From a bacterium (lineage in GTDB: Bacteria; Electryoneota; Electryoneia; Electryoneales; Electryoneaceae), in assembly GCA_963675295.2 (NCBI GenBank), contig CAXXKJ010000002.1:608001-672000 (forward strand): DNA of 64,000 nucleotides. Reading direction: 5' to 3'. A program made the position numbers and the translations under genes. Below are positions 33,723 to 61,686 of this stretch, one piece after another. The notes beneath the pieces are model-generated. The model was given only the letters and a program-made list of their open reading frames with translations, searched no databases and had not been told where the DNA came from. How positions within the stretch are numbered: position 1 is the first letter of the stretch; every line of letters starts with the position of its first letter.

Positions 33723-33764
33723 TTTCTCCTCACAAGCCTCTTTTCCTCGCCACAACAACCTATT

Positions 33765-41940: not shown

Positions 41941-41960
41941 AAATGACCACCCCCTTTCGA

Positions 41961-42719: not shown

Positions 42720-42756
42720 ACGTCCTCCTGTTTGCTTTGTTCGGGTTCACGTTCTT

Positions 42757-44336: not shown

Positions 44337-44406
44337 AGCGTCTCAAACGAGTGAAAGCGGAGATCTGGTTTTTGCTCTGTGCGAGGCAACCAAGGGGGGT
44401 AGAACG

Positions 44407-46221
44407 ATGCGTATTGCAAGTGTAGTGCTGTTGGTTGGTTTGCTGCCGTGTCTGGTGATGGGTGAGCTCTGGAACGAACACACCGTGGTTGGTGACTTCA
44501 ACGGTGCCACTTGTGTTTGCGCGGCAGACGTGGATGGCGACGGCGACATGGACGTAATCGGTGTCGCATATGTAGGCGCGGATATCACTTGGTGGGAGAA
44601 TGCGGATGGCACAGGTTCCAACTGGATTGAACACGTGGTGGATTATGGTTTCGTTGGTGCACGAAGCGTTTATACAACCGATCTGGATGGTGACGGTGAT
44701 TTGGATATACTTGGCGCAGCGAGCGTGGATGACTTCAGTTGGTGGGAGAACCTGGATGGCACAGGCCTGAACTGGTCTGAACACGTGGTGTATAATCCGG
44801 TGCCAAATGCACTCGGAGTCAGTGTATATGCCGAAGATCTGGACAACGATGGTGACATGGACATACTCGGCGCGGAAAGTGGCACCGACCACATCACCTG
44901 GTGGGAGAACGTGGATGGTACAGGTTTAACCTTGTCTGCACACACAGTGGACGGAGAATTTGATGGAGCAAATTCTGTTTATGCCGAAGATGTGGATGGT
45001 GATGGCGACATGGACGTGCTCGGTGCAGCCTTCAGTGAGGATCAAATCGCCTGGTGGGAAAACACGGATGGTACAGGTATGAACTGGTCTGAACACATCG
45101 TGAGAACTTCCTTCGATGGTGCCGTCAATGTTTATGCCGAAGACTTGGATGGCGACGGCGACATGGATGTACTCAGCGGCGCATACAATGATTCTGAAAT
45201 TAGCTGGTGGGAGAATACGAATGGCACGGGCCTGACTTGGTCTGAACACGATGTGGCACCCATGTACCATGTAAATCATGTCTGTTCCGAAGACATTGAT
45301 GGTGACGGTGATATGGATCTGCTCGCTGTGGCGGGAGAAGGGGCAGATTTTCTGTCCTGGTGGGAGAACCTGGATGGCACAGGTCTGAATTGGACAGAAC
45401 ATTTGGTTGATAGCGATTTTACCAACGGTTTTTATACGTGCTCAGCCGATGTGGATGCCGATGGTTTAATGGACATTTTGGGTGCTGCCAGGGATGATGA
45501 CGACATCTCCTGGTGGGAGCAATATTTTCCAGTCGAGGTATCGCTTTCCGCCATCAGCTATCCAGTCTTGATCCCGTCGGTTGGCGGTCCTTTCTGGTAT
45601 TCGATTGAGCTCACAAACCAGATGAATACTATTGTCCAGGGTGTTTTCATCACCGAAGCCATACTACCCAGCGGCTATACGTACGGCCCGATGCTGAGCT
45701 TCAACCTGGCACTCGCGGGTGGACAGGTGCTTCCATCACCGTTACTGCAAGTGGATGTACCGGCGTTTGCGCCGGTCGGGGTGTATGAGTTTCACGCCAT
45801 CTTCTCTCCATTCGTACCAAGTGGATATGAACACAGCGATTTCTTTGAATTTGAGAAGCTGTCCGCTCCGTCGGCGGCTCCAGTCGTGAGTGAGTGGGGT
45901 TACACGCCTTGGGCGGAAATGGAAACGGTGGTTTCATCCAATCCGGAACTGCCGGATGAGTTCACTGTTTCGCAGGCCTGTCCGAATCCGTTTAACCCGT
46001 CGACGGTGATCTCGGTATCTCTGCCGGAGACGGCGGATCTGACGGTGATCGCGTACAACGTCGCGGGGCAACAAGTCGCTGAACTCGCAGCTGGTCAGTA
46101 TGCTGCGGGAACGCATTTGCTTACATTCGACGCTTCCAGCCTCGCCGGTGGACTGTACTTCATTCGTGCGACAGTTCCCGGCAAGCTCGATCAGGTGCAG
46201 AAGGTGATGCTGGTGAAGTAA
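44407..46221 (+). CDS. FG-GAP/VCBS-repeat beta-propeller with Ig-like module and T9SS-type CTD
   Basis: Seven D.D.DG..D-type repeats, mostly followed by WWEN; CTD 'CPNPFNPST...GLYFIRA...QKVMLVK'. Confidence 0.88.
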   Translation: MRIASVVLLVGLLPCLVMGELWNEHTVVGDFNGATCVCAADVDGDGDMDVIGVAYVGADITWWENADGTGSNWIEHVVDYGFVGARSVYTTDLDGDGDLDILGAASVDDFSWWENLDGTGLNWSEHVVYNPVPNALGVSVYAEDLDNDGDMDILGAESGTDHITWWENVDGTGLTLSAHTVDGEFDGANSVYAEDVDGDGDMDVLGAAFSEDQIAWWENTDGTGMNWSEHIVRTSFDGAVNVYAEDLDGDGDMDVLSGAYNDSEISWWENTNGTGLTWSEHDVAPMYHVNHVCSEDIDGDGDMDLLAVAGEGADFLSWWENLDGTGLNWTEHLVDSDFTNGFYTCSADVDADGLMDILGAARDDDDISWWEQYFPVEVSLSAISYPVLIPSVGGPFWYSIELTNQMNTIVQGVFITEAILPSGYTYGPMLSFNLALAGGQVLPSPLLQVDVPAFAPVGVYEFHAIFSPFVPSGYEHSDFFEFEKLSAPSAAPVVSEWGYTPWAEMETVVSSNPELPDEFTVSQACPNPFNPSTVISVSLPETADLTVIAYNVAGQQVAELAAGQYAAGTHLLTFDASSLAGGLYFIRATVPGKLDQVQKVMLVK

Positions 46222-46432
46222 AACGGTCGAAAGGAGAGGGGATCAGTAACATTGACTACGGCCGCGTCCATCTGTTTATAGATGCGGCCGTAATGACTCC
46301 ATGACGACGGGCGAACCGGAGACGTCCCTGCTGGTTTTTCATCCAATCTGCGCCCGGGAGCTGCCCACCAGCATCTTTCTTCCCGTATACTTAGAGCAGG
46401 CCTCGTTCGCAGACCTCATTTGTGGAGACCCC

Positions 46433-49400
46433 ATGTTTCGTATGCGCGTTGCTGCATACGGTTTGATCGTGTTTGCCCTGCTCCAGACTGCCCAACTTCA
46501 CGCACAGATCACCGAAACCGGCTCGTTCCGGTCGTTCATCCTCGGCAACGAACCCGCCGCCGCGTACGACAACTGGATTTCGCACACGGTGGAAGGGCTG
46601 GCCGTGCCTGGCGGCTACAACCACCACATGCCGCCGCAATTTGACCGGCAGACGACCGGTTTCGGCAGTTTCGAGCTGATCAGCGACGACGACGCGCCCG
46701 CCGAAAGCCTGTTCTGGCGGCAGGTTTTCACCCACATGTGGAACGATGACCTTGCGGCCGCGCAGGCGTTGTTCAGTTCGCAGGGGCGTCCGTTCGATGC
46801 GGTTTATTTCAACGACACCGAGACTGGCCGTACGTTCCGCATGGTGCGTGAGCAGCTCAACGAAAGCTATGTCGATACCGGGTTTTTCGCCGGACCGGAC
46901 GATGACGTGATCGGCAGTTTCGACAAGGGCTGGGGGCTGTTTGTCTTCAATCCGGAAGCGGCGATTCCGTGGGCGCACGCGCAAGTGGTACACATCAACG
47001 ACGACTTCATCGCGCCGCCGTTAACTACAGATCTGTTCCTCGACGGCGACCTCGGGGTTTTATCGATGAACGGGACCGGTCGTGAAGTGCGTTGGGTGGA
47101 CGGCGAAGACTACAACAACTCGCGGTCGTTGTCGGATCCGTCCCGTAACGGACGCCTGCCGGTGCAGTGGTTCACGCAGTTTGTCATCGACACGTTGCGC
47201 GCCCAGGGGATGACCGACCTCACCATCCAGTTTCACAGCTACGACAGTGAATCGCACCTGACAGAACCGACGATCCAGATCAGCGGCGGCCCGTTGGACG
47301 CTTTCCCCAATCGTGGCGCGCGAGATATCTCCGGACAGGGGTATGACTGGGTGAATTTCGCTCCGACCGTCGTTGTTCCAGCGGATTATTCGATGCCGGG
47401 GCAGGCGGAAGTACTGGTGCAGAATTACTTCGCAGTCTGGCGCGGGTTTGGCTTGATGCACCTCGAGAGCGGGGTGGAGATCCCGCGGAACGTACAGCTG
47501 ACTGGGTACGGCGACAGCCCGCAGATGGCGTCAGCGTGGGAGGGGGTCAACCGCTACGAAACGTTTGACCGCTGGCTGCACGTCGAGTTCGACGAACTCC
47601 CAAACCCGATCGCGGCGGCGGAATACACCGAGCTGGATTTCTTCATGGGCACCGCACCGCCGACCGAGGAAAACTGGGACGCGTTGCTGCGGTACTATGA
47701 AGCGTCGAACGATGCTTTGGTCGCGTACCTGCATGACGTCGAGAACACGCAGGACACGACTCCGCCCTCGACGGCGGCCGGGTTGTCGGTGTACTACGTG
47801 GCGGACGATTTCGTTGAGCTGACTTGGTCGCAGGCGTCACTCGATCCGAATTTCGCGACGTACGAGATCTATTACGGCACCGCGGACGAGATCGACACGA
47901 CAAACACGTTGTGGAATTTCAGCAACGACCCGGATCTCGTCGGGCAGAACATTCGGTTCACCAGCGTCAACGGTCTGGATTTCAACCAGGACTATGGTTT
48001 CCGAGTTCGTGGGCTGGACCTGTTCGGGCTGGCAGGACCGTTGACGGAAACTGTCCGCGCGATCACCGTTGAGGGCGATCAGGCTCCATTGCCTTTCTCG
48101 CTGATCTCGCCGCTGGACGCCGACACCTGCTTCACGCTCGACACGACGCTGGTCTGGCAGTCGACCACTGATCCCGACCTGTACGACGTCCCGCATTACG
48201 ATGTTTGGATGGACACGTTGCCGGACCTTTCCACCGCGTGGCAACTCGAGGACGCCGACAGCCTAGCCGACACGACCTTCGCCGTCGAAGATCTGATGAA
48301 CCGGCGCACGCTGTTCTGGTCAGTGCGTGCCACGGACCGTAATACGGAGGGGACGTGGGCCAACGAAATCAACTCGCTGGTGACATGGATGCCGCTGCCG
48401 CCGGCTGATTTCACACTCAAGTATCCGCGTGATCGGGAAACGCTGTACGACGTTACTTCGACGCCAATCCGCTGGCGTTCGACGGTGAGCCAGAATGATC
48501 CGGACTGGGAGATCACCTACCGGCTGATATTCGGGCGTGATGCGGCCTTTGCGGACGCCGACACGTTCCAGACGCAGGACACGACGTGGACGGTGGACGA
48601 TCTGGAATTGAACCACACCTACTGGTACAATGTGTACGCCCACGATCAGATCGACACGGTGCGTTGCGAGTCGGTGTGGCGGTTTTACGTCTGGAGCCAT
48701 CCGATCCCGAACTTCAGCCTCGTGTTGCCGGAGCTTGGCGCACGTGTCGGCAGCGGCGAGGTGACGGTCACGTGGGAAGAACCGGCCCCGGCGCGGGTTG
48801 ACGCCACGCAAACCCATCATCGGCAGATGCAAACGGACTCCATCACTCCGGCGGTCGAAGGGCGAGTGACCCGTCTGTCGAAGCAACGCAAGCACAGCGG
48901 CAAGGGGATTCCGTTTGACGGCGGGCAGGGCTGGGCGTCTATTGATGCCCAGGGCGGACCGGACGATTTCGGCCACCTGTGGATCGACAACGGCGATTAC
49001 GGCGGCCCGCTGTTCGACTGGATAGAGATCAGTGAGACCGGCACCCTGTCGTCAGTGTCCGACACCGACGACGGCACCGAATCGGTCGAGTTGCCGTTCA
49101 CCTTCCCGTATTACGGCGGCGAGTACGACACGCTGGTGATCAGCAGCAACGGGAACGCACATTTCGGCACGCCGGACGATGGCTGGCAACATTACACCAT
49201 TCCGAGCGCGGATGGTCCGGCGGGCATCCTCGCGCCGTGGTGGATGGACCTGCGGCCGAATGTGCGCGGAACGATTTTCTATCAGGCGTTTGACGACTAT
49301 TTCGTCGTGCAGTGGGACAACTGCCAGGAGTACAGCCACCCGTTGTGGTCGTATACCTTCCAGCTGATACTCTACCCCAACGGCCGGATCAAATTCCAGT

Positions 49401-50923
49401 ACGAGCACATGTTCGGCGGGTTGGCAGATGCGACCATCGGCATCGAAAACCTCGCCGAGGATGACGGTCTGCTGGTCGCGTTTGACGCGCCGTACATCGA
49501 CAACCATTTCGCCATCCTGTTCACGTTCGAGGACTGGCTGTACGATGTTGAATGGGCAGCCGATCCAGCGTTCATGAACCCTCTGTCCACCTGGACCTTC
49601 GACACCGAATACACCATTGACGAAGTGATCCTGCTGCGCTTGTTCAACGCCGGCGAGCTGGATGAACTCCCGGACGATCTGACCGTGTTCTGGCGAGTCA
49701 ACACGATGAACTTGTACAGCCAGATGGCGTGGGCGGATCCGGGCGTGATGGGGCGCAGCTTCATGGTCTACATCCAGGAACCGCCGGACACGTTCGAGCT
49801 GATTCAACCGCCGGATGAGGCCGTGGTGGAACAGGATACGGTGACCGTCTGGTGGCATTCGACCACCGATCCAGACCCGTTGGACACACTAAGCTACGTT
49901 GTCGAATGGTCGGCTGTCGAGGACGAGTTCCTGCCGGAGAACAGCGCAGTTGTCAGCGACACGTTCTTCACCATTACCGAGCTGCAGCAGTTGGTTCAGA
50001 CGCCGCGTCACGGTGGGGCGGAGGCGAAGGTTCAGGCGGATGTGGTCGAGCTGCCGCGGGGTAAACGGGACAAGGTGCGGGGCAAGGCGGGTGCGTCCGT
50101 GGCGGCGGTGAATCCGTCGGAACAGAACGGTCTGCCGGTAGAACCAGGCGAGAACGAGATCGACGAACTCCCGGACGATTCGTATCTCTACTGGCGTGTG
50201 CGCGCGCGGGATCAGGCGGGGAACGAAACGTGGCCCGCGCATGGCGAGACGCCGTGGCGGTTCTACGTGCAGGTGCCGGAACCGCCGGACCCGTTCGTTT
50301 TGCTGGCGCCGGAAGACGGCGACACGCTGTCCGAGCTGGAGGTGAGCGCGTTGACGTTTTCGTGGGAGGAGTCGGTCGATCCCGACCCGGACGAGGAGGT
50401 GGTGTACGGTCTGCGGGTGCAGGTGCAGGTGGGAACGAGCATCGACACGACGCTGCTGTACACCGGCTTGACTGAACCGTCATATACGTTGAACCTCGCG
50501 GACACGCTGGGTATCGGCGAGTGGGAGGACTGGTGGACGGTCGGCTGGGTTGTTGGCGCGGTGTCGGCAGGGGATACGACGCTCTGCGATGATCCGTTCG
50601 GCTTCCTCGTCGCGCCGTACCTGTCGGTGTATGACAGCGAGTTTACTGGCATCCCGGACGAGTTCTCGATCGCGCGGATCTACCCGAACCCGTTCAACCC
50701 GGTGACCAATGTGGTGGTCGGTATTCCGCACGCCAGTGACGTCCGTGTCGCGGTGTACAACGTGCTCGGACGGCGGGTGCAGACGGTTCGGCTGGATCGT
50801 GCAACGCCCGGCTATCACACGATCTCGCTGGACGGCCACACGCTCGCAAGTGGCATCTACTTCGTGCAGGTGACCGTTCCCGGCCAACTCAACGAGGTGC
50901 GCAAGGTTGTGCTGGTGAGATAG
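46433..50923 (+). CDS. Large secreted multidomain protein (putative N-terminal hydrolase, Fn3/Ig repeats, T9SS-type CTD)
   Basis: Signal peptide; Fn3 'DTTPPS...VELTW...YEIYY'; repeated 'F.L..P.D' modules; CTD 'YPNPFNP...ASGIYFV...RKVVLVR'. Confidence 0.8.
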   Translation: MFRMRVAAYGLIVFALLQTAQLHAQITETGSFRSFILGNEPAAAYDNWISHTVEGLAVPGGYNHHMPPQFDRQTTGFGSFELISDDDAPAESLFWRQVFTHMWNDDLAAAQALFSSQGRPFDAVYFNDTETGRTFRMVREQLNESYVDTGFFAGPDDDVIGSFDKGWGLFVFNPEAAIPWAHAQVVHINDDFIAPPLTTDLFLDGDLGVLSMNGTGREVRWVDGEDYNNSRSLSDPSRNGRLPVQWFTQFVIDTLRAQGMTDLTIQFHSYDSESHLTEPTIQISGGPLDAFPNRGARDISGQGYDWVNFAPTVVVPADYSMPGQAEVLVQNYFAVWRGFGLMHLESGVEIPRNVQLTGYGDSPQMASAWEGVNRYETFDRWLHVEFDELPNPIAAAEYTELDFFMGTAPPTEENWDALLRYYEASNDALVAYLHDVENTQDTTPPSTAAGLSVYYVADDFVELTWSQASLDPNFATYEIYYGTADEIDTTNTLWNFSNDPDLVGQNIRFTSVNGLDFNQDYGFRVRGLDLFGLAGPLTETVRAITVEGDQAPLPFSLISPLDADTCFTLDTTLVWQSTTDPDLYDVPHYDVWMDTLPDLSTAWQLEDADSLADTTFAVEDLMNRRTLFWSVRATDRNTEGTWANEINSLVTWMPLPPADFTLKYPRDRETLYDVTSTPIRWRSTVSQNDPDWEITYRLIFGRDAAFADADTFQTQDTTWTVDDLELNHTYWYNVYAHDQIDTVRCESVWRFYVWSHPIPNFSLVLPELGARVGSGEVTVTWEEPAPARVDATQTHHRQMQTDSITPAVEGRVTRLSKQRKHSGKGIPFDGGQGWASIDAQGGPDDFGHLWIDNGDYGGPLFDWIEISETGTLSSVSDTDDGTESVELPFTFPYYGGEYDTLVISSNGNAHFGTPDDGWQHYTIPSADGPAGILAPWWMDLRPNVRGTIFYQAFDDYFVVQWDNCQEYSHPLWSYTFQLILYPNGRIKFQYEHMFGGLADATIGIENLAEDDGLLVAFDAPYIDNHFAILFTFEDWLYDVEWAADPAFMNPLSTWTFDTEYTIDEVILLRLFNAGELDELPDDLTVFWRVNTMNLYSQMAWADPGVMGRSFMVYIQEPPDTFELIQPPDEAVVEQDTVTVWWHSTTDPDPLDTLSYVVEWSAVEDEFLPENSAVVSDTFFTITELQQLVQTPRHGGAEAKVQADVVELPRGKRDKVRGKAGASVAAVNPSEQNGLPVEPGENEIDELPDDSYLYWRVRARDQAGNETWPAHGETPWRFYVQVPEPPDPFVLLAPEDGDTLSELEVSALTFSWEESVDPDPDEEVVYGLRVQVQVGTSIDTTLLYTGLTEPSYTLNLADTLGIGEWEDWWTVGWVVGAVSAGDTTLCDDPFGFLVAPYLSVYDSEFTGIPDEFSIARIYPNPFNPVTNVVVGIPHASDVRVAVYNVLGRRVQTVRLDRATPGYHTISLDGHTLASGIYFVQVTVPGQLNEVRKVVLVR

Positions 50924-50979
50924 CTTCGAGTTCCATGGCTGGTGAGTTGTGGTTTCCAGCTGTGCAGACTGTGAAAGAC

Positions 50980-51011
50980 AACCCGCCGAGTTTCTAAGTT
51001 CGGCGGGTTTC
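50980..51011. terminator. Hairpin terminator between convergent genes
   Basis: AACCCGCCGAG...TTCGGCGGGTTT. Confidence 0.65.
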
Positions 51012-51048
51012 CTCGCACAGAAACTTCCCGTGTACCCCACTGTCCGGG

Positions 51049-51669
51049 TTACAGCTGAGGCACAACCCCCTGTGCAAGCAGAAGTTGATAATGCCCGTTC
51101 GCTGGAAATTCTGGAAGTGCGAAATCCAAGAGCAAGGTGAAGGTATGGAATCCCGGAGAAAAGTTAACGGAAAGTTGGCCATCCAAGTCAGGAAGTAACG
51201 GTTGAAATGCTTCTCCATCAATGCTGATGTGCCACATAATTGAATAATCGATATTCACATAGGTGTTGTTGTACACATCACTCACGTAATGAAGTGTTGG
51301 TGCGCCTTCGGCACCTGCAAACCCCTCGCAAAGTTTCCATATCATGGATTCTGATCCTTCAATCGTGCCGCAAAACTCAACGGAAAGAGGTTCTGTCATT
51401 TGACTTAGATGGACATTTGCGGCGGTCCAGTCCAATGTGAGTCGCATGGAGATTTCTGTTGTGTCTTCATCCGTAATGGAACGCGCGCCAAATTTCCGTC
51501 GATCCGCTGCCTTGCCAATGGAGATATAATGCGGTTTTCCATAGGGTTGAATTGAACGTGGTGGGTTCTTTGTTTCTGGTGTCCGCGGGGGTGGAGGTGT
51601 AGCTGCCAGCGATGATGCCGCAAGCAGCAATAACAAACTAAAAACGAGGTATACGTATATGACACGCAT
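51049..51669 (-). CDS. Secreted pilin-like minor subunit
   Basis: Sec signal; beta-rich; C-terminal 'ANGHYQLLLA' matches the 233-aa protein. Confidence 0.5.
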   Translation of the reverse strand: MRVIYVYLVFSLLLLLAASSLAATPPPPRTPETKNPPRSIQPYGKPHYISIGKAADRRKFGARSITDEDTTEISMRLTLDWTAANVHLSQMTEPLSVEFCGTIEGSESMIWKLCEGFAGAEGAPTLHYVSDVYNNTYVNIDYSIMWHISIDGEAFQPLLPDLDGQLSVNFSPGFHTFTLLLDFALPEFPANGHYQLLLAQGVVPQL

Positions 51670-51699
51670 GGTCTTGCCACGGTTAATGGCTTCAAAAAA

Positions 51700-53355
51700 C
51701 TAAATCACAAAAACTCTTGTCTTACGATACAACGATCCTTCATCAGAATCATACGTTATATAAAAAGTAGCTCTATATTTGCCATCTTTCAGCTCAGGAA
51801 TATTTAATGAGTAATTACGACGGCCATTCGGAAGTATGATTTGATCGCGTCCACCAAATTCAACACGGTCTGATATTATATCATAAGCTCCTGGATTGTT
51901 CTCTCGTTCGAGTGCAAAGATACCGGAAACAAAGCAGTATTTCGTTCCGTTATTTTCGACACTAAGGTCAAAGATGCATTTTTGGGTGTCTGGATCTTTG
52001 TGGACATAGATTGTGTCGATTGAAACCTCGGATTCTCCTGTTTCCGGTCCGGTCAGGATGATTAATTGCGTGCGTGCGCCACGAAACTCTTCCGCCAACG
52101 CAGGTTCCAGGCCCTTAGGTATCAGACTCAGCGCGGCATAATACTCGCCGTCCAACGTTTCAGGTGCCTCTACGCGTAGCTTTACCGTTGTGGAATGACG
52201 GGGAGGAAGCACGATCTCGTCGTCGACCTGTTCCAGCCAGGAAAGCGCAGACCGGCCGTGGTCAACGCCCGCCGGGCTGAAATAGGAGTTTCCCCGTGGA
52301 TCGATTGACCAGTCAATAGTTTCCGGTTGCAGCCAGATTGTGTCCAGGGCGATGCTTTGCAGGTTGGCAACGATGTAGGTTGATCCACCGGGAGTTACGG
52401 TTTTCCGCAACACGGGATCCCGGAACCGGAAGGCGGGCCGGGCTGCCCACCGAACCTGGGCCGTTTCATCCACCAGCACGTTCGGGATGGTTTGGCCGTC
52501 ACGGATTTCAAACGGGAATTCTTCCGAGATATTCCGGCCCTCGCGAGTCTGCAACGCGATACTCAGCAGGTAGTACCCGTCAACCAGCGCACCGACTCCC
52601 GTCGCTTTGAAATCCCGGGCACGGTTGGGAATGATATAGCCTTTTCCGGCGGTCAGCGGCAGGGTTTCCAGCCGCATGCCCGAGCCGCTCCACAGGCCCA
52701 CCGATCCCCGGACCATGGTGTGCGTATTCCCCGAATTTCGGATCGGAATCTTTAATTCCCAGCCCTTGCTTTGTTCAGAACGAGCGAGCAGGGATTGATT
52801 TTCGAGCTCTGCCTTTTCACCGTTCGGATAGACGATAATCGTGTCAGGATAGAGAACCGCTGCATTCCGCCTTGATTCGACGGTGAACATGAGCAGCACG
52901 GCGACCTGCAATTTCATTTCGAGGCCGGTTTCACCCTGATCCGTACTGATGTCAATCGGCATATCCTTGCTGCCGGCGGTGACTTTCAGCATGGCATAGT
53001 AGCCACCTTCGGCGTCGCGGGGAACGGTCACGGTTCCACTGAGCACCATTCCTTGAACCGGTCCGATATGTGCTGATTCCTGTTCAAGCGTAATCCAGTT
53101 CGCCGCACCGCGTGCGTAGGTCGAATCGTTGGCAACAAAGGGCTTGCCGGTTTCATCGATATCCATGTCATGGACGGAAAAAACAGCCAGCACCTCTTCA
53201 TCGCCATCGTTGTACACATTGAACTCGAAGGTGGTCGATCGTCCGCGTTTGACATCCAGTTCCTGGATCGGAGGGCTCAGCTGCAGCGCTGCTACTCCGA
53301 GCGATGGAAGCAGAATGGACAGGCAGATCGCGATGAGGCATGCTTTGGTGTTCAT
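51700..53355 (-). CDS. Tandem-duplicated PapD/COG3121-like periplasmic chaperone
   Basis: Signal peptide; each half has a 'W(I/L)...V..P....G.YYA.L' domain and an 'N.G...IIPN/ILPN..R...G.Y' domain. Confidence 0.6.
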   Translation of the reverse strand: MNTKACLIAICLSILLPSLGVAALQLSPPIQELDVKRGRSTTFEFNVYNDGDEEVLAVFSVHDMDIDETGKPFVANDSTYARGAANWITLEQESAHIGPVQGMVLSGTVTVPRDAEGGYYAMLKVTAGSKDMPIDISTDQGETGLEMKLQVAVLLMFTVESRRNAAVLYPDTIIVYPNGEKAELENQSLLARSEQSKGWELKIPIRNSGNTHTMVRGSVGLWSGSGMRLETLPLTAGKGYIIPNRARDFKATGVGALVDGYYLLSIALQTREGRNISEEFPFEIRDGQTIPNVLVDETAQVRWAARPAFRFRDPVLRKTVTPGGSTYIVANLQSIALDTIWLQPETIDWSIDPRGNSYFSPAGVDHGRSALSWLEQVDDEIVLPPRHSTTVKLRVEAPETLDGEYYAALSLIPKGLEPALAEEFRGARTQLIILTGPETGESEVSIDTIYVHKDPDTQKCIFDLSVENNGTKYCFVSGIFALERENNPGAYDIISDRVEFGGRDQIILPNGRRNYSLNIPELKDGKYRATFYITYDSDEGSLYRKTRVFVI

Positions 53356-53447
53356 AACCTACTCCACGGAAATCGGGCGAAACCGCACAGATCAAAAGCA
53401 ATGCGCCCGGCCGGCCGGGCTCCGGCCGGACGCATCTGCATGTTGGA

Positions 53448-54149
53448 TCAGGTTGTCGGAACCGGGCACCCAGCGATAACCAGCTGGTAGTGACCATCCG
53501 CCTGGTGTTCGATCAACAGGAAGGAACCCCACCACTGGAACCAGTGGTTACATGGCGCAACATTCCAGTTCAGCACCAGGTCGCCGTTGCCGTTCGGGGT
53601 ACAAGTCGCCCAGTCGTGGGTCACGTTCGACCCGATCGACAGGCCATTGCCCATGCGGCACTGCCATGCGATCGGAATGTCGCCGGCGGATCCGAACGGA
53701 GCTTCGATGAAGTGAAGCTTGTCGAGGTCCTGAGACAACTTGTCAAGGCTGACCCGGAGCGTTTCGTTCGAACGCACGGTTCCGCTGATGTAGAAGTTGA
53801 TCGTTTCGGCGCCTGTGAGCGCGTTGACACGATGCCAGTCGTAATCGGTGTACTGGTAGGTGCAAACCATGCTCAGTTCAATCCACAGATCGAGGGTGAT
53901 CGGATCATACTGAATGATCTGGCTCTCCCACTGATCCCCAACCAGATAGAACTGATGGAAGTTTCCACCGGCGTACAGGCACAGGCCACTGTCGTAGCTG
54001 CCGGTAGCGGTTTCCCAGTTGATCGGGCAGTTGCCCCACCCCTCAGCGAACGTCTGGCCGGTGAGCTGGTTCGTGTACTCCGGCGGACCTGAAGCGATCG
54101 CCGCTCCCGCGATCAAGCTCAGGACAATGATGAACGTTAACGGTTTCAT
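53448..54149 (-). CDS. Secreted Cys-rich pilin-like major subunit
   Basis: SD GGAGGAG; Sec signal 'AGAAIA|'; 7 Cys; C-terminal 'ADGHYQLVIA'; GC-rich hairpin downstream. Confidence 0.55.
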   Translation of the reverse strand: MKPLTFIIVLSLIAGAAIASGPPEYTNQLTGQTFAEGWGNCPINWETATGSYDSGLCLYAGGNFHQFYLVGDQWESQIIQYDPITLDLWIELSMVCTYQYTDYDWHRVNALTGAETINFYISGTVRSNETLRVSLDKLSQDLDKLHFIEAPFGSAGDIPIAWQCRMGNGLSIGSNVTHDWATCTPNGNGDLVLNWNVAPCNHWFQWWGSFLLIEHQADGHYQLVIAGCPVPTT

Positions 54150-54421
54150 GATACATCTCCTCCGCTTTGCACCTTATATTGGTGCAGTTAAGCCGTTCCG
54201 TGAGAAATCACGGATTTCGGCTTCGCGCGGCCGTCCGGAAGCTTCCCCAAGCGTTTGACCGGACGGCCATTTTTTACTGCCTACCTGGATTACTGCGTTT
54301 ATGCCCGAGTGGGCTGTTATGGGATGGAGGTGTGACCAATCGCCCGGTTAGGTGGCACACTCTCCTTTTCCCGAGACTGACTGACGAATCCGCGGTGCTG
54401 TTTCCCCGTCGTTTGTGTTGA

Positions 54422-56029
54422 CTATCCCTCAAGCACGTGAGGGGTTACAAAGATCACAATCTCCGAGTCGCGTGTGTTATCCTGCGTATAGCGAAAGAAG
54501 TAGCCGAGAAACGGTATACTTCCCAGGAGAGGGATCTTTCGTTGCTGTTTGTCTTCCACTTCCAGGCTCAATCCACCGATGGTGAAGGTGTCGCCATCGT
54601 TGATGCGAACCGTCGTTTCGGCTGCACGTGTGTTGATCTGCGGAAGACCTTCACTGTCCTCACCGATCACATCCCCAACTTGTGGCCTGAGATAGAGCGT
54701 AATCTCCTTTGTATCGGAGACAAGCGGGGTTATTTCTAGAATAATGCCAGATGTAATCGATTGTAAGGTATTTTGCGCATAATATTGATTTTGACTTGTC
54801 TGAATAATAAAATATTCGTCTCGTATCAATCGTATGCTTGCAGTCCTGCCATTCATGGTTGTGATCCGTGGATTCGCACGGATGCGAGCGTCCCCGGACG
54901 CCAGCAAGGCATTCAGCGAAACGCTTACATCCACCAATTCACCTCCAACCGACCCGCCAAGTTCAACAATTTCGAGAGTCGAGGATGGGGTGTCGATCTG
55001 GGGAGAACTGGTTGAGAACAATCGCGCATGGTTCGGATCCCGATTGCTCGCGGACCAGTCCACTCCCAGCTGCAATTGGCCGGTGTGCGTAATCTCGGCG
55101 ACAATGACTTCGATGGACACCTGAACCGGTGGTTCATCCATGGCGAGAATGTCTGCTTTGATTCGCTTGACAAGCGATTCGGGAGCGGTAATGAACACCT
55201 TGTTGCCAGTGTCTGAAGCCTTTACATAGTCTGAATAAATGTCTGGCAATGTATTTACCGCCGCACTCGCCTTGATATTTGTCAACTGAACAACATCCGT
55301 AATTGATATCAGCGTAAACGACGGATCCGTAGGATCAAGGCTGCCAATGATATATTTGTCATCCGTAAATACATAAGCATACCCCAGTGGCAATAAGATT
55401 GAATTCAGCAATTTGTCAATCGGCTGATCATTGGCTTCATAGGTGACCAGACCCTCTACCATCGGGCTCCAGAAGATGGGAATGCCTGTTTCGATGGAAA
55501 GGTCACTGAGAATCATGCCCAGATCAGTCTCATAGTAGGTGTTTGTAATTCTGAGATCCTGATGCGGGGAGGGATCGGCTGCCTCGTGGTTGAGTGTGTC
55601 TGAACGTGTATCGCTTGCTCGTGGTGTGTCACGGTACGATTGCTGGTTTATGACCATCGCGGAGTGACGCAATTTGCCGATCCGAGTGCTGTCTCGTTCG
55701 GAATCAGCCCACCGGTAGGCATCGTTGATCGTATTCAAGGCAGCTGCAGCGTCTTCGACTTCGAGTTGTGTTTCGGTCAGGAGCAGCAGGAAGGGAAGAC
55801 GGTCAGAAGAAAGGGGCAGGAATTGGAGTTTGTTCGTGAGGTAAACCTCAGCTTCCTGGTAGCGGTGTTCGTGGACCAGTTGCCTGGCAAACTCGTAGGC
55901 TTGAGCTGCGCCGTAGTCTGCAGGTCGTTCGGCTTTCGCGGCATTTGCCAGCAGGGACACAATCAGGAAGATCCATAGATACTTCAACCGACTTCGCCCC
56001 GGAAAATCTGAAGCCGTGATAAGACTCAT
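54422..56029 (-). CDS. Secretin (GspD/PilQ family) with N-terminal TPR-like helices
   Basis: N0 domain; 'QVSIEVIVAEI', 'ANPRITTMNG', 'GIILEITP', 'IGGL', 'KIPLLGSIPFLGYFFR', 'IFVTPHVL'. Confidence 0.92.
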   Translation of the reverse strand: MSLITASDFPGRSRLKYLWIFLIVSLLANAAKAERPADYGAAQAYEFARQLVHEHRYQEAEVYLTNKLQFLPLSSDRLPFLLLLTETQLEVEDAAAALNTINDAYRWADSERDSTRIGKLRHSAMVINQQSYRDTPRASDTRSDTLNHEAADPSPHQDLRITNTYYETDLGMILSDLSIETGIPIFWSPMVEGLVTYEANDQPIDKLLNSILLPLGYAYVFTDDKYIIGSLDPTDPSFTLISITDVVQLTNIKASAAVNTLPDIYSDYVKASDTGNKVFITAPESLVKRIKADILAMDEPPVQVSIEVIVAEITHTGQLQLGVDWSASNRDPNHARLFSTSSPQIDTPSSTLEIVELGGSVGGELVDVSVSLNALLASGDARIRANPRITTMNGRTASIRLIRDEYFIIQTSQNQYYAQNTLQSITSGIILEITPLVSDTKEITLYLRPQVGDVIGEDSEGLPQINTRAAETTVRINDGDTFTIGGLSLEVEDKQQRKIPLLGSIPFLGYFFRYTQDNTRDSEIVIFVTPHVLEG

Positions 56030-56749
56030 TTACCCCTCATAAACAAGTCACTATGTCAATGAAATAGCTGCGCCGAAGCACGTAGAATCATAGTACTCGG
56101 CTGCATGCCATCAAGCAATCGAGATCAAATAACGTATACAAACAAGCTTATTAACACTAAATGAAGTCGATAATCATTTACATATAACAGGACAATCGGA
56201 CAGCTGTGACAAAATCCTTGTCCGAGCAAACATCTTCTATTACTGGAGAAAGCTGACCCCCCCTGGGATGGTACCAGTATACTAACACAATTTTGGAATT
56301 GCGAGCTTGTGCGCAATTTTCTTATTTGGATATTGCTCCGAGAGACTATAAGATAATTATATATCAGGATCAATAATAAAAAGAAATAGTGCTAGATAAA
56401 GTCCTGATAAATTTAAAACTCCGCAGAAATGATTTATAATAATTAAGAAGATGATTTGAAAAAATTCCTTGCTGGCGAGCTATTTTTTGTCTCACGATAC
56501 AAGGAAATCACTCAGTCTCGTCCTTAGGTAACAACAGGGTAGGCATTAACACTCCCGAGTTATCATTGATATGTTTGGCACGCATAACAAAGGCTTAAAC
56601 TGGAACAAGAACAAAACATTATATTTAATAATGTTATAAAAGAGGATAGGGGCCTTCTTCGTGGGTACACGAGTCGGAAAGGGAGGATATCACCATTCTT
56701 CTATCTTAACAGAAACCAGGATGATAACATCGATATCAATGGTACTTGT

Positions 56750-57928
56750 TTAAAAATAGACATTTAATCGCGCAAATCCGGACAGCAGGCCGCTTGGAAA
56801 CGCTCCATCTTCTTCACCCAGCGTATAGCCCGCGAAGAGGGTCGCGTCGGCGTTCTGCGCGATGGAAATGGTCAGTCTCGGGTTGATCATGTAGGTTTCG
56901 TCGGGCGAAACGAACGCATACAGCGAGGCGGTTGTCAGCATGGTGATGTCGTAGCGTGTGCCGAGCATCAGCCACCCTGGCCCGACCGGTTCGCCGTACA
57001 GCAGGTTGGCCAGCCAGTCGCTGATCGGGTAGGGGGTTTCTTCTTCCGCGCGACCGTTGTAGAACCCTTCCGCCATGACATACAGCCCATTCTCGAAAGT
57101 GTAGTCGAAGCCACCAACGACACGGGCGAAATCGTCCTCGGATTCCATCCAGTTGTAGTTGCCTTCCATCCAGATACCGAGTCCGAGCAGCGAGCCGGTA
57201 AACTCGAGGCCGAGCGCTTCCCGTCGTTGCGTGCGCGGCATCAGGAATGTTGGATCGAGCGAGGTCGAGTCGGTGACCGAGTGCGCGGTGACGGCGACAT
57301 CGTAGCCGATCGCGGAGAGGTAGGTCGCAAGGCGCAGGGCGTAGCCGGACTGGTCGAAGTTCGGCCCAGGGGCCATGATCGCGGCGATCTGTCCGCCGAT
57401 ACCCCAGCGGTAGTCGAGCCGGATCGCGCCGACGCCTTCCTTTTCGTAGGTCGGGTCGATCAGCGATTTCTTGTGGAACAGGTCGGTGGGGTTGATGCTG
57501 TAGCCGGGTCCCCAGGACAGTTGCTGCTTCCCGGCGCGCAGGGTGAAGCCGTGCGTGTTCCAGGTGAGGAACGCGTTATCGAGATAGATCCGGCTGCGAT
57601 CGAGGTTGACCACCGGCTGCTGGCCGAACTGGCGCATCACACGCACGATATCCGGCGGCAGGTACGGTTCAGCATTGATCGCGAGATCGCTGTGGTAATA
57701 GAGGAAGTTGACATTGCCCCGAAAACCCAGCTCGCCGTCCTCACCGCCGGATTGCACGTCAAGCCGCACTTTTGACGCGCTGACCAGGGTTTCGTCGCCC
57801 TTTTCCGGCTGATCAATCTGGGTCGTATTTTCGTAGTAGCCGGAGAAGTCCGGTTGCGCGTGGCTGATGCCCGTAAGAAAGACCAGTGCCGCCACAGCCA
57901 GTATCCAGCGAAGTTGTTGTGCATTCAT
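56750..57928 (-). CDS. Outer-membrane beta-barrel protein of the RND/LolA-like operon
   Basis: Signal peptide; 'LRAGKQQLSWG...NPTD'; ends in 'LNVYF'. Confidence 0.75.
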   Translation of the reverse strand: MNAQQLRWILAVAALVFLTGISHAQPDFSGYYENTTQIDQPEKGDETLVSASKVRLDVQSGGEDGELGFRGNVNFLYYHSDLAINAEPYLPPDIVRVMRQFGQQPVVNLDRSRIYLDNAFLTWNTHGFTLRAGKQQLSWGPGYSINPTDLFHKKSLIDPTYEKEGVGAIRLDYRWGIGGQIAAIMAPGPNFDQSGYALRLATYLSAIGYDVAVTAHSVTDSTSLDPTFLMPRTQRREALGLEFTGSLLGLGIWMEGNYNWMESEDDFARVVGGFDYTFENGLYVMAEGFYNGRAEEETPYPISDWLANLLYGEPVGPGWLMLGTRYDITMLTTASLYAFVSPDETYMINPRLTISIAQNADATLFAGYTLGEEDGAFPSGLLSGFARLNVYF

Positions 57929-58141
57929 CGTATCGATTTCCTCATGCCCCAGACAGTCATCTCCGGGATGATCAACCGTTTCCCACGGGTCCCTGCTTTC
58001 AAGGTGCCTTCTACATCCAGGTGCCCCTGATGGCTCCGCCAACAGGGATCATCAGCCGTCTCCGGGTCCGCGTCCGCATTTTCTGCGTCACGAGTACTTC
58101 ACCACCTCATCACTCGATTACTTCACCACTCCACAGTGCTA

Positions 58142-58173
58142 TTCTTACCACGGACTTAAGTCCGTGGTAAGAA
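58142..58173. repeat. Perfect 32-bp palindrome
   Basis: TTCTTACCACGGACTT|AAGTCCGTGGTAAGAA; related copy at 24066-24087. Confidence 0.8.
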
Positions 58174-58205
58174 GAATGGTACGCAGACACGGGCTAAGGC
58201 CGAAA

Positions 58206-58964
58206 TCATTCAATCGGCTCGCTCAGTGCGCCCTTGGTGAACAGGCGCGCGTCCGGTTCTTCGTTGTAGTGGATCTCGATGGTGTTCATCACCGTGTGCG
58301 AATTCCGCCGGTGGTTGTCCATCCGCATCGAGAACGCGGTCTTGCGGCCGTCCACGGTGCGAAAGTCGGACAGGACCAGGGTCTTCTCCAACCCTTCCTC
58401 GTCATAGTACTCGATCTTTCGCGAGAGGTGGTCGTTGGTTGAGGCCCAGATGATGAGGTGGTCGTAGGACGGTCCGTCCGGAGTCGGTGTCGCCTTCAGT
58501 TTGATCACCGGTTCGCCCTCGAGGGTTTCCTCGCCGAGGACTTCCGCCGTGTAATCTTCCCGCATGTCGCCGGTGGACAGGTCTTCGTAAGAGAAATCGC
58601 TGCCCATCGCGGACTGTTTCAGCGTGTGCCCGGCGTAATGGCGGGTCACATCCCGGCGTTTCATGTAGTACCACACCTGGTCGCCGCCGTCCAGCAGCAG
58701 GATTTTGTCGCCGGCGACGCGGGACGGGTCGGTGTACGCCATCAGCGACACATCTCCGCTGTCCGCGCTGAACGATTCGAAGGTGAAGGTGCGTTCGTCG
58801 CCGGAGGTGGTGGTGATGGTCTGCGTCATCGTGCCAATGGACCACGGTACCGACTCGGCGTCGTCAATCTTGCTCAGCCACCGCTGCCCGGCTTCGTCGG
58901 CGAAGGCGCAGCAAGTGATCAGTAGTATGGCAAATACTGTATGGAAGAAGACTCGTAGCTTCAT
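58206..58964 (-). CDS. LolA-like outer-membrane lipoprotein-sorting protein
   Basis: Signal peptide; 'MGSDFSYEDL', 'KIEYYD..G..K'. Confidence 0.8.
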   Translation of the reverse strand: MKLRVFFHTVFAILLITCCAFADEAGQRWLSKIDDAESVPWSIGTMTQTITTTSGDERTFTFESFSADSGDVSLMAYTDPSRVAGDKILLLDGGDQVWYYMKRRDVTRHYAGHTLKQSAMGSDFSYEDLSTGDMREDYTAEVLGEETLEGEPVIKLKATPTPDGPSYDHLIIWASTNDHLSRKIEYYDEEGLEKTLVLSDFRTVDGRKTAFSMRMDNHRRNSHTVMNTIEIHYNEEPDARLFTKGALSEPIE

Positions 58965-58995
58965 GGTTCTATCCTCAATCTGGTCGTGAACTCTA

Positions 58996-61686
58996 TCAGT
59001 TATTGTCCCGCACAAACACCCGCACCACGGCCGGCAGCACGAACACGGTCGAGAGGAAGCAGAAGCCGACGCCGAGAAACAGCACCATCCCGAAGCTGGC
59101 CATGCCGCGCATGGTGTAAAACGCGATCGAACCGAAGCCGATCATGGTGGTGACGCTGGTCAGCAGGATAGCGCGTCCGACGCGGCTGAACGCGGTTCGG
59201 ATACGGTCCAGAGCGCTGCCGCTCAGTTCACGGAAGCGGTGCAAGGCGTGGACGCCATCATCGATTCCAATTCCGAGAATCACCGGCACTGCGATCAGGT
59301 TGATGTAATTGTATTTCATCCCGGTGACGTACATCAGGCCGAGCATCAGCAGCGCGCCACTCAGAAGCGGAATGACCGCCATCAGGCCGAAGGTGCCACG
59401 GAAGTGGAATAGTAGCAGGATGAAGATAACGCCCAGCGCGAGCAGCGATCCGGTACGTCCGTCACGAAGTGTTTCGACCGTCATCACGATGAACAGTTCC
59501 GCCGTGCTCAGGTGATTCCCGGCGACATCTTCCACCTGCTGGTCGAATCGGTCGAGCTTGTCCTTTTCCCAGATGCTTTCACGTGGCGAAACACGCAGCA
59601 GGTATTCGGCCGAGCCATCCATCGGCAGCAGCGACTTGCGAACCGTTTCGGGCAAATTGTCGAGGGTGCCCGGGGTCGAGTTGGCCATCTGCGGCATGCG
59701 TTCGGCGAGGGACGCATTCCACGCCGCCGCGACTGCCTGCACCCGTGCCCGGCCGGCGTCATCCTCAAACAGTGCCTGCAGCGAGGGAAATACGGCGGTG
59801 GTGTCGGTTTCGTTGGTCTCGGTATCGTACCCGGTGAGGATATCGATAACCGGCCACACCCGGTCGACACCAGCCATGTACGCCTGGTTGCTCATGGTGT
59901 CGAGGTTGTCCCACAGGCGGCTGATCTGTTCGTACAGCTCATCAGTATCGGTGCTCGGATCGGAGTTGGACGCGATCCGTTCGCGCAAGGTCGCGAGTTG
60001 CGGGGCGTACTCGTCAACCCACGCCGGTTTGGTAACATAGTCGCTGACCGAGCTGACCGAACCGACTGCGGGCTTATCATCAAGGGTGTCCTTGAGGACA
60101 CGTGCGCGCTCGATGTCGGTGACGGTGATCCAGCCTGATTGATCGGACATCCCGAACCGATCCGGGATTCCCTGCTGCATCTCGACCGAGGTTAGTCCTT
60201 CAGGCTCGAGATTGAGGAAATTGTATTCAAACGGGATGTCGGTCCAGGCGACGTAGAAACACGCCCCGCCGAGCAGCACCATCACGATCAGCACCAACGC
60301 GGGCCGTTTGAACGACCAAACCGCGATGCTGCCGAGCAACGGCCAGCCTTCCTCAGCATCCGGTGGCAACGGTGCGACGCGTCCCTTGCGGGTGTACCGC
60401 TTCTCCCGCAGCACGAGCAGCGGCGGCAGGGTGAGGAATACCGCGACCAGAGTCAGCAATACGCCCGCACCAGCGGAGAAGCCGAATTCGAACACGCCGC
60501 GCGTGTCGGCGATCATCAGTGCGAAGAACGCCGCCGCGGTGGTCAGTCCGCCGGTGAGCACGCCCCGTCCCGTGCCGCCGATGGTGATCGCGAGCGCATC
60601 CTCGAGGCTGTGACCGGTGCCGCGTTCCTCGCAGAAACGGGTGACGAGGTGCAGCGTGAAGTCGATCCCAAGTCCGATCAATACCAGGCCGAGCATCACG
60701 GTCATGATGTTGATCGAGCCGAACACGACCGCCATCAGGCCCAGCGCCCAGATGATTCCCACCGCCAGCGGCAACATCGCCAGCCACGGCAATCCCCAAC
60801 TGCGGAAATTGCGCACCAGCAGCAAGTAAACGAGAATCCACGCCGCCAGCGTCAACAGCTGGGTGTAGGTGCCGACGCTGTTCATTTCGTCGACGCCGAT
60901 CGGTCCCATGCCGGTGAAGCTGACCTTGACTTCGGGATGTTCCGCGGCAAGCTCACTGACGTACTCTTCCACCTGAGTCGTTAATTCCAGCGCGGCCTCG
61001 GATGCCGACCACATCGGTTCCTTCGGTGTGATCGCGACCAGCAGCATCTTGCGGTCGAGACTCAGCATCCACGGTTCCCCGGCGAGCAAGGCGCGTACGC
61101 CTTCGTCCGCGTTGGCCTCATCGCCGGACAAGCCCTGTTCGAGACGATCGAGGGCGAGACCCATGCCGAGCAGGCCGCGCGCGACCATCAGTTCGTCGTC
61201 GCGCAAGTTGTCGTCGTTGTCCGTGTACTCGCGTTCGAAGTCGTCGTTGATACCGCGCAATACACCGGTCAGACTGGGGTCGTCGTACATCCGCAGCCAG
61301 CGGTCGAAATCTTTCGGTTTCTGCAGCATGAAGCCGTGGTCGAGGAAATACTCCTGCGGCTGCGCACCTTCGACGTGGTAAACACCGTCCATCTCGCGCA
61401 GGGTGGGCACGATTTCTTCCGCGAACGCGACCATGTCGTCACGTTCGCCCTCGATGGCGATGATGATCGACTGTTCGCCGTACTCGTCCACGATCTGCTT
61501 GTAGCCGACGGCGTCCGGATGGTGTTCCGGCAGCAGGTCGATGAAGTTCATCCGGAGTTGCAGTGTTCCCGCCTGCCAGAATGCGGCAAATGTCACAAGC
61601 AGCAGCGCGATCAACATCAGCACCGGACGGTTGACACTGAGCCGCGCAAGACCGCGCGCCCAGCCGGGGATGGTTTCCCGTTTCAT
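58996..61686 (-). CDS. MMPL/RND-family transporter
   Basis: Two TM bundles with 'GLGIDF' and 'GIGIDD', and 'LTT/VTT' motifs. Confidence 0.9.
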   Translation of the reverse strand: MKRETIPGWARGLARLSVNRPVLMLIALLLVTFAAFWQAGTLQLRMNFIDLLPEHHPDAVGYKQIVDEYGEQSIIIAIEGERDDMVAFAEEIVPTLREMDGVYHVEGAQPQEYFLDHGFMLQKPKDFDRWLRMYDDPSLTGVLRGINDDFEREYTDNDDNLRDDELMVARGLLGMGLALDRLEQGLSGDEANADEGVRALLAGEPWMLSLDRKMLLVAITPKEPMWSASEAALELTTQVEEYVSELAAEHPEVKVSFTGMGPIGVDEMNSVGTYTQLLTLAAWILVYLLLVRNFRSWGLPWLAMLPLAVGIIWALGLMAVVFGSINIMTVMLGLVLIGLGIDFTLHLVTRFCEERGTGHSLEDALAITIGGTGRGVLTGGLTTAAAFFALMIADTRGVFEFGFSAGAGVLLTLVAVFLTLPPLLVLREKRYTRKGRVAPLPPDAEEGWPLLGSIAVWSFKRPALVLIVMVLLGGACFYVAWTDIPFEYNFLNLEPEGLTSVEMQQGIPDRFGMSDQSGWITVTDIERARVLKDTLDDKPAVGSVSSVSDYVTKPAWVDEYAPQLATLRERIASNSDPSTDTDELYEQISRLWDNLDTMSNQAYMAGVDRVWPVIDILTGYDTETNETDTTAVFPSLQALFEDDAGRARVQAVAAAWNASLAERMPQMANSTPGTLDNLPETVRKSLLPMDGSAEYLLRVSPRESIWEKDKLDRFDQQVEDVAGNHLSTAELFIVMTVETLRDGRTGSLLALGVIFILLLFHFRGTFGLMAVIPLLSGALLMLGLMYVTGMKYNYINLIAVPVILGIGIDDGVHALHRFRELSGSALDRIRTAFSRVGRAILLTSVTTMIGFGSIAFYTMRGMASFGMVLFLGVGFCFLSTVFVLPAVVRVFVRDNN

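Follow-up and report, generated by a model that had tools for sequence, protein, structure and literature searches.

The window analysed here, 64,000 nucleotides of contig CAXXKJ010000002.1 from a bacterium of the Electryoneaceae, contains a cluster of four co-oriented genes on the minus strand that encode a secretin and three further exported proteins. The secretin gene (54422–56029; 535 residues) is followed by the genes for a 233-residue protein (p233; 53448–54149), a 551-residue protein (p551; 51700–53355) and a 206-residue protein (p206; 51049–51669). The cluster had been singled out in a first-pass annotation, which saw in it a secretin, a chaperone and two pilin-like subunits; the orientation and coordinates of the four genes are confirmed here. 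As read from the sequence, all four products start with a charged and then hydrophobic N terminus and would be exported by the Sec pathway. The maximum Kyte-Doolittle value over the first 45 residues is at least 1.9 in every member of the p233 family (13/13) and the p206 family (7/7). The description of p233 as rich in cysteine holds only to a modest degree, with 7 Cys in 233 residues. The cluster is best explained as a module of the diderm cell envelope that is complete in its four genes, with p551 as a candidate periplasmic chaperone, p233 as a candidate major subunit, and p206 as a candidate minor subunit, adaptor or terminator.

That the first gene encodes a clear secretin is confirmed by Pfam. 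The Secretin family (PF00263) matches residues 375–533 with 140.1 bits against a cut-off of 27.5 (E 6.7e-41), and weaker matches were obtained for Secretin_N (E 9.3e-4) and STN (E 0.015). The protein consists of a signal peptide, STN/N0-like and N1-like domains and the C-terminal secretin domain, and by our own reading of its residues there may be a helical region of about 100 residues near the N terminus. It falls below all curated NCBIfam cut-offs, scoring 149 bits for GspD (cut-off 351.35), 141.6 for MshL (250.2), 131.9 for PilQ (284.35) and 120.8 for SctC (238.45), with HofQ and PilN scoring lower than these and also below cut-off. The nearest solved chains are GspD-type (E 1.2e-22), and 7ofh, a "Virion export protein", is a distant match (E 5.4e-11). 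The C-terminal secretin domain and the N0/STN-like and N1-like domains are shared with the secretins of the type II secretion system (T2SS; GspD), type IV pili (T4P; PilQ, MshL, RcpA), the type III secretion system (T3SS; SctC) and filamentous phage (pIV). Those secretins have as partners an ATPase, a platform protein, (pseudo)pilins, a prepilin peptidase or the phage protein pI, whereas none of these is linked to the present gene, which is linked instead to genes for an immunoglobulin (Ig)-type chaperone-like protein and for beta-sandwich proteins.

The lack of an usher, ATPase, platform protein and prepilin in the cluster, on which the first-pass annotation had remarked, holds across 48 open reading frames (ORFs) and 515 frames of the window. 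A Pfam scan of the 46 ORFs of at least 90 residues and two extra ones revealed no usher, PapD_N protein, T2SS or T4P ATPase, platform protein or prepilin peptidase. No prepilin-type motif was found near the N terminus of any of the 515 six-frame stretches, and the sole match to the motif in the window is situated at residue 693 of a long frame.

When one genome per species was scanned for related clusters, 11 loci were obtained (L001–L011), all of them from further lineages without cultured members and each seen with flanks of 10 kb. They carry the labels Zixiibacteriota, Ignavibacteria, Zhuqueibacterota, KSB1, UBA2214 and "Cytophagia", besides a metagenome-assembled genome (MAG) labelled "Alphaproteobacteria". 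Relatives of p551 are present at all 11 loci, and in all 11 a p233-family gene lies directly upstream of the p551 gene. A secretin gene is adjacent in 8 of the 11, which are all 8 of those whose contigs reach far enough; in L001, L008 and L009 there is a contig edge where the secretin would be expected. The window and L001–L007 represent one arrangement, type A, with the order secretin, p233, p551, p206. In L002 the order is p233, p551, p206, secretin, so the linkage of the secretin survives rearrangement. The p206 gene is found 3' of the p551 gene in six of the seven type A loci, and the seventh, L005, ends at a contig edge directly after p551. L001 contains two tandem p233-like ORFs (1–372 and 260–1081), the first cut by the contig edge, which suggests a duplication of the subunit gene in that lineage.

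The remaining loci, L008–L011 (KSB1, UBA2214 and a "Cytophagia"-labelled MAG), have a six-gene form, type B, as in L010 (6686–14315). Here the order is a protein of 423–428 residues without a known family, ending in PG.Y.G.ITFT.L..P, then a single two-domain p551-like protein (263–267 residues), a p233-like protein (227–236 residues), a tandem p551-like protein (538 residues), a Lamin-tail-domain protein with a type IX secretion sorting domain, and the secretin. No usher family was among the Pfam matches of the 22 type B cluster ORFs.

The genes that flank the cluster in the window, for Wzi-like, LolA-like and MMPL proteins, have matches at none of the 11 loci, and the 59 flank ORFs from nine loci encode unrelated functions. 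Because the flanks differ between loci and encode unrelated functions, the module is self-contained and occurs in varied genomic contexts. Those 59 ORFs include no usher, PapD_N protein, T2SS or T4P ATPase, platform protein or prepilin peptidase, and the 10 kb around each of the 11 loci are free of other T2SS or T4P genes. A survey of homologue neighbourhoods, as the first-pass annotation had suggested, therefore finds four-gene synteny without an usher to be conserved and the secretin to be adjacent in distant lineages (8/8); at no locus do the genes sit beside an usher. Distances between loci are strongly correlated for p551 and p233 (r = 0.92 over nine loci, p 0.0002; r = 0.70 within type A, p 0.028), a correlation that shared ancestry alone could give. 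The secretin distances follow the split between types A and B (r 0.65 with p551).

The AlphaFold2 (AF2) model of p551 consists of four beta-sandwich (Ig-like) domains arranged as two two-domain units, with a predicted local distance difference test score (pLDDT) of 78.6. The protein had been described as having two similar halves, and compared directly these are only weakly alike (21% over 104 residues, E 0.001). The likeness is confirmed by the four-domain model and by the stand-alone relative of 263–267 residues from other loci, which matches both halves of the long proteins (E 1.5e-12 and 5.6e-9 in L010). When the model was compared with the Protein Data Bank (PDB) by Foldseek, it matched chains 9i1y_A and 9i25_C, both "WxLIP from Enterococcus faecium" and one of them named "bound to long WxL", over 260–268 columns with a Foldseek probability of 1.00. 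The target-normalised template modelling (TM) score is 0.57–0.61 and the root mean square deviation (rmsd) 6.0 Å, for one half of p551 that the output does not specify. These WxLIP chains are the sole PDB matches of p551 with a sizeable TM-score. The top ranks by E-value are large multi-Ig proteins and chains of the ciliary central apparatus, with TM-scores of 0.03–0.29 and rmsd values above 20 Å, and for that reason reflect repeated Ig domains and not a shared architecture. The single-unit form of type B, with its 263–267 residues, compares with 251 and 267 residues for the solved WxLIP chains.

On the sequence level, p551 itself has a marginal match to WxLIP_PGBD (E 0.046) and otherwise no Pfam or NCBIfam family. 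WxLIP_PGBD (DUF916, PF06030) matches 12 of 24 relatives, on their first or third domain and always below threshold, the best at 25.9 bits against 27.3 (E 1.1e-5). CARDB and NPCBM_assoc are among the other Ig families matched, and there are weak matches to Ig domains of the ASH, HYDIN, CFAP65 and Cep192 types, which belong to the broad Ig superfamily of PapD and MSP. At E ≤ 0.1 the 24 relatives together match 23 families, which include neither PF11797 (DUF3324) nor PapD_N, and with PapD_N absent we reject membership of p551 in the PapD family. Clusters that neighbour residues 23–292 of p551 in a language-model comparison serve as leads only; they are partly annotated as WxLIP_PGBD (22% and 11%), WxLIP_HBD (12%) and PapD_N (27%), and one is automatically named "chaperone PapD". 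A search of the word-indexed protein set gave 16 relatives of 34–40% identity. Searched with a profile of the 24 members, the representative proteins gave 7056 matches at E ≤ 0.001, of which 1773 persist at 1e-10 and 171 at 1e-30, so the family is no rarity. Single-unit relatives exist in Acidobacteriota, Deinococcota, Gemmatimonadota and Bacteroidota.

In the model of p551 there is a long hairpin (residues 117–133 and 144–159) with a low-confidence, disordered tip. In 21 of 24 relatives no part of the mature protein is more hydrophobic than the second strand of this hairpin, and their hydrophobic maxima lie at residues 119–179. A C-terminal hydrophobic window of 19 residues is present in none of the 24, so p551 has no membrane anchor, as expected of a soluble periplasmic protein in a diderm cell. 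The proposal of a PapD-like chaperone thus stands in its first part, since p551 is chaperone-like with four Ig-like domains and has WxLIP as its best compact match, and fails in its assignment to the PapD family.

The two small proteins, p233 and p206, end in ADGHYQLVIA and ANGHYQLLLA, respectively. This near identity of the last strands had been noticed before; it is not due to chance and is part of a more extended likeness. The last 47 residues are 40% identical by BLASTP (E 1e-6), and the family profiles, built from alignments A2 (p233; 13 sequences) and A3 (p206), align with hhalign over 128 columns with a probability of 99.5% (E 3.7e-23), which makes p233 and p206 paralogues over their C-terminal 130 or so residues. 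Only two relatives of p233 besides itself were found by word-indexed protein search, so A2 was built mainly from locus ORFs, and a Protein Atlas search with p233 gave no usable match. The conserved motifs of the p233 family are LWIE..TY.YT.Y.WHR, DIPI.W and H..DG.Y.L..AGCP.P (A2), and p206 carries a proline-rich N-terminal extension that is variable in A3. Neither protein has a lipobox Cys after the signal peptide. The AF2 model of p233 is an all-beta protein with a beta-sandwich, of moderate confidence (pLDDT 69.5). Among type B relatives of p233 and p206 no Pfam family was matched at E ≤ 0.05, and for the profiles of alignments A1 (p551) and A2 the best match to PDB sequences was a sialidase at E 0.27, with nothing significant.

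Directly 3' of the p233 gene, on the same strand, there is a conserved, covarying GC-rich RNA hairpin (53400–53436), a candidate attenuator or 3'-end stabiliser. It is a terminator-like site of 15 pairs with a fold z-score of −3.9, unique in the window, and a hairpin occurs at the same position in all 12 loci, the window included (z −2.1 to −7.1). The type A hairpins (eight sequences) conserve the stem CAGCCGG/CCGGCTG and the loop AGCCCGG from one candidate phylum to another, while the proteins are only 35–60% identical. In their alignment 93.2% of the cells are paired and 7 of 11 pairs change on both sides, values reached by 0 of 500 shuffles. Type B loci have a different conserved stem at the same position after the p233-family gene. 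No Rfam family matches the hairpin at E ≤ 0.1. Because a T-run follows the stem in some loci only, we read the hairpin as a partial terminator or 3'-end stabiliser that would raise p233 over the products of the downstream genes. Its position fits a major structural subunit needed in excess over assembly factors, and it may be comparable to the hairpin after papA.

The fold of p551 invites comparison with the WxL system of Enterococcus and other Bacilli. WxLIP proteins consist of DUF916, DUF3324 and a transmembrane helix (Hassan et al. 2023, PMC10599100), and the WxL domain is described by paired Trp-x-Leu motifs (PMC9772566). According to a preprint of 17 October 2026 (10.64898/2026.10.17.759780), the elr operon in E. 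faecalis builds a pilus in which the WxL protein ElrD polymerises by N-terminal donor-strand exchange. In this account ElrC and ElrD are the WxL pilins and ElrE (DUF916/DUF3324) is the donor-strand chaperone, a strand of its DUF916 hairpin (141–152) filling the groove of the subunit, and by Foldseek ElrE resembles the chaperones of chaperone-usher systems. The same preprint, using Pfam thresholds on 4,698 genera, reports the WxL system only in Bacillota, and the words secretin and diderm do not occur in it.

A DUF916/DUF3324-like unit of two Ig domains, the first of which bears a long hairpin, is common to the module and the Elr system. Both combine one chaperone-like gene with two small exported paralogues, which is the commonest count for WxL clusters, and both are without an ATPase, usher or prepilin. 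They differ in that the unit occurs in tandem in the module (as single and tandem copies in type B), and in that the C-terminal helix of 96.7% of WxL chaperones in the preprint is found in 0 of 24 p551 relatives. The motifs of p233 and p206 differ from paired Trp-x-Leu, no WxL domain was detected in them, and they have no LPxTG anchor. Whereas the WxL system belongs to Bacillota, the module belongs to diderm candidate phyla, and a secretin adjoins it where the contigs reach. The p551 relatives do not combine DUF916 and DUF3324 above the Pfam thresholds, but by Foldseek p551 has the two-domain WxLIP fold. With chaperone-usher pili the module shares a periplasmic two-Ig-domain chaperone-like protein, the absence of an ATPase, and small exported subunits whose conserved C-terminal strand contains Gly and an aromatic residue. 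In contrast to those pili, it has a secretin and not an usher for the outer membrane (neither the window nor the 10 kb around the 11 loci revealed an usher), there is no PapD_N in p551 relatives, and the fold of the subunits is not recognisably pilin-like. The module therefore stands outside the membership criteria of the chaperone-usher, WxL and T2SS/T4P systems, and probably resembles the first two in how it works.

We propose, with a confidence that stays a little below an even chance, that a WxLIP-like chaperone in the periplasm delivers two beta-sandwich subunits for passage through a secretin dedicated to them. Following Sec export, p551 would stay in the periplasm and, as a WxLIP-type chaperone similar to those of chaperone-usher systems, would cap and stabilise p233 and p206, probably by means of the long, hydrophobic beta-hairpin in its first domain (about 117–159). 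The p233 protein, overproduced owing to the RNA hairpin after its gene, would be the major subunit, and p206, with its proline-rich extension, a minor subunit that may act as adaptor, initiator or terminator. The dedicated secretin would fill the place of the usher, where Gram-positive WxL pili have nothing, and the subunits, most likely as a thin non-covalent polymer, would cross the outer membrane through it without an ATPase. Because no ATPase would be involved, subunit folding and strand exchange would supply the driving force.

To our knowledge, secretins occur only in filamentous phage or as components of large machines driven by ATP (T2SS, T3SS, type IV and Tad pili), and donor-strand fibres leave diderm cells only through ushers. 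In the literature searched, judged partly by title and abstract, neither a link between a secretin and DUF916/WxLIP-type proteins nor a fibre built with a chaperone and a secretin was found. We hold more tentatively that diderm candidate phyla possess in this module a self-contained pilus pathway of a "chaperone-secretin" kind that needs no ATP. It would be a third route, based on a secretin, by which donor-strand-exchange fibres are built, and its tandem WxLIP-like chaperone would share ancestry with the WxL/Elr chaperone; this broader claim is possible, with the chances leaning against it. The main correction to the first-pass annotation, whose idea is supported in part, is that the chaperone would be of the WxLIP and not of the PapD type. 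What would be new within known chaperone-assisted fibre assembly is the outer-membrane component and the subunit family.

Several observations weigh against this proposal, first among them those on the subunits. The model of p233 has no PDB match at E ≤ 0.001 by Foldseek, and its best weak matches are the jelly rolls of birnavirus VP2, collagen-binding (ColG CBD) and PPC domains, and CBM35; neither the WxL chain of 9i25 nor a pilin is among the matches listed. Two highly conserved stretches, 36–55 and 92–107, are modelled with pLDDT below 50, and it is speculation that they could become ordered only in a complex. Neither p233 nor p206 matches any Pfam or NCBIfam family at E ≤ 0.1, WxL included, and their family profiles gave nothing significant against PDB sequences. 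By our own reading of A2 against the consensus in the preprint (10.64898/2026.10.17.759780), the mature N termini (PPP..G.Y..GWG...) do not have the alternating hydrophobic pattern of a donor strand. Longer, adhesin-fused p233-like proteins were not found, in a search that counts as weak evidence. The present model, of moderate confidence, does not show the small proteins to be Ig- or pilin-like, as had been expected of them.

On the same evidence, namely the lack of a Pfam match and of a WxL chain among the Foldseek matches listed, we rejected membership of p233 and p206 in the WxL domain family.

Further points against the proposal concern p551 and the secretin. The sequence link of p551 to WxLIP lies under the curated Pfam cut-off in every member, generic Ig families match the relatives about as often (fn3_5 13/24, Big_14 10/24), and WxLIP_HBD is not among the families that the 24 relatives match at E ≤ 0.1. 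Among the type A loci, the distances of the secretin follow neither those of p551 (r 0.34, p 0.14) nor those of p233 (r −0.13), so that the secretin may be replaceable, or its tie to the module a looser one. In known systems the secretin cooperates with machinery of the inner membrane, which drives the substrate outwards, and neither the window nor the loci with their 10-kb flanks encode any such machinery.

The alternative that survives best, though we think it rather unlikely, is a minimal two-step module for secretion or display without a fibre. The proteins p233 and p206, for example lectin-like or matrix proteins, would then leave through the secretin in folded form, as monomers or as a heterodimer, and p551 would direct them to the pore as an adaptor or holdase of the periplasm. 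Such a module fits the conserved synteny equally well, T2SS secretins do export folded proteins, and the carbohydrate- and collagen-binding beta-sandwiches among the best weak matches of p233, together with the missing donor-strand pattern in A2, speak for it. However, the known export of folded proteins through secretins needs a pseudopilus and an ATPase, none of which was found here, and the WxLIP-like architecture has so far been tied to strand complementation of polymerising subunits. The RNA hairpin, with the excess of p233 that it implies, fits a structural polymer at least as well.

It is improbable that the secretin works for a T2SS, type IV pilus or Tad system encoded elsewhere in the genome, its three neighbours being exported proteins, perhaps substrates or accessory factors, without a role in assembly. 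The secretin domain is an ordinary one, nearest to the GspD, MshL and PilQ models, our view covers 64 kb of a contig of about 4.5 Mb, and within type A the secretin shows no covariation with p551 or p233, all of which would agree with such a service. Against this stand the adjacency at 8 of 8 loci from several candidate phyla with unrelated flanks and in one rearranged order, the failure to reach any of the six NCBIfam cut-offs (GspD, MshL, PilQ, SctC, HofQ, PilN), and the absence of other T2SS or T4P genes within 10 kb at any locus.

We give slightly less credence still to p551 as the exported component, a multi-Ig surface adhesin or sheath for which p233 and p206 would be accessory factors or secretin pilot proteins. 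Multi-Ig proteins are common as adhesins, the p551 family matches fn3_5, Big_14, CARDB and NPCBM_assoc, and its top Foldseek ranks by E-value are large multi-Ig proteins, but the low TM-scores and high rmsd values of those ranks argue against a shared architecture. Pilotins carry a lipobox Cys, which p233 and p206 do not have, and the attenuator-like hairpin follows the p233 gene and not the p551 gene.

Finally, a remnant of a filamentous prophage or other mobile element with its own secretin is very improbable, because, in spite of the lower GC of the cluster (0.45–0.57, flanking genes 0.60–0.63) and the secretins that filamentous phages encode (7ofh as a distant match), no phage gene (Zot-like ATPase, replication protein or integrase) is adjacent in the window or the loci, the nearest integrase (25931–27109) lies 24 kb away in a separate island, and the same four genes recur in unrelated chromosomal contexts.

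Around the module, an AT-rich intergenic region of 720 nt lies 5' of the secretin gene (56030–56749, minus strand) and is the probable promoter or regulatory region. Its GC content is 0.42–0.45 against about 0.60 in the flanks, and it contains two sigma-70-like sites on the minus strand (56373–56345 and 56114–56087), which are consensus matches only. The low GC of the module together with this gap (51000–56750; 0.42–0.57) is compatible with horizontal acquisition. The gap between the secretin and p233 genes measures 272 nt in the window and 130–290 nt in L003–L007; it holds a weak minus-strand hairpin (54229–54268) with a ten-pair GC-rich stem, which at a fold z-score of only −1.6 is not established as functional. 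At the other end, a terminator-like hairpin on the minus strand (50982–51007; z-score −2.87) is situated 3' of p206 between convergent genes, with the stem CCCGCCGA/TCGGCGGG followed by a T-rich tail. The region 50000–57500 has no Rfam match at E ≤ 0.1.

Beyond the AT-rich region, at 56750–62348, the minus strand has a separate gene cluster, which encodes a TetR regulator, a transporter of the MMPL/RND type, a LolA-like protein and, with a weak Wzi-like match, a protein of 430 residues. This cluster, which does not accompany the module at other loci, probably serves the export of lipids or lipoproteins. Four large exported proteins with C-terminal sorting domains for type IX secretion are encoded at 3846–7411 and 44278–50923, one with FG-GAP repeats and one of 1540 residues with an fn3 domain, so the organism probably has a type IX secretion system. 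Between these two regions, 25931–43428 is a probable integrated mobile island with a tyrosine integrase, a D5_N/DUF5906 primase-helicase, an SMC/AAA ATPase, a complete type I restriction-modification set (HsdR, HsdS, HsdM), a PD-(D/E)XK nuclease, a DUF932 protein and an HTH_17 protein. The genes for SAM synthetase and AdoHcy hydrolase stand directly beside the module in L007 (12784–15240), and in the window they are found at 15899–18437, separated from the module by about 33 kb that include the mobile island, a placement that hints at ancestral synteny shared by the window and L007. At 18469–22210, a 763-residue ORF without a Pfam match is followed by a 495-residue protein with a TraF_2-type outer-membrane match (E 3.5e-7).

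If the proposed assembly of p233 and p206 by p551 and the secretin is correct, it would be a new way across the outer membrane, in which a secretin can replace the usher as the exit for a chaperone-primed polymer. It would also connect the Gram-positive WxL pili to diderm bacteria and, given a shared ancestry of the two chaperones, would extend a recently described system beyond Bacillota. With four genes, the system would be small enough to reconstitute, so that the opening of a secretin gate without an inner-membrane motor could be tested.

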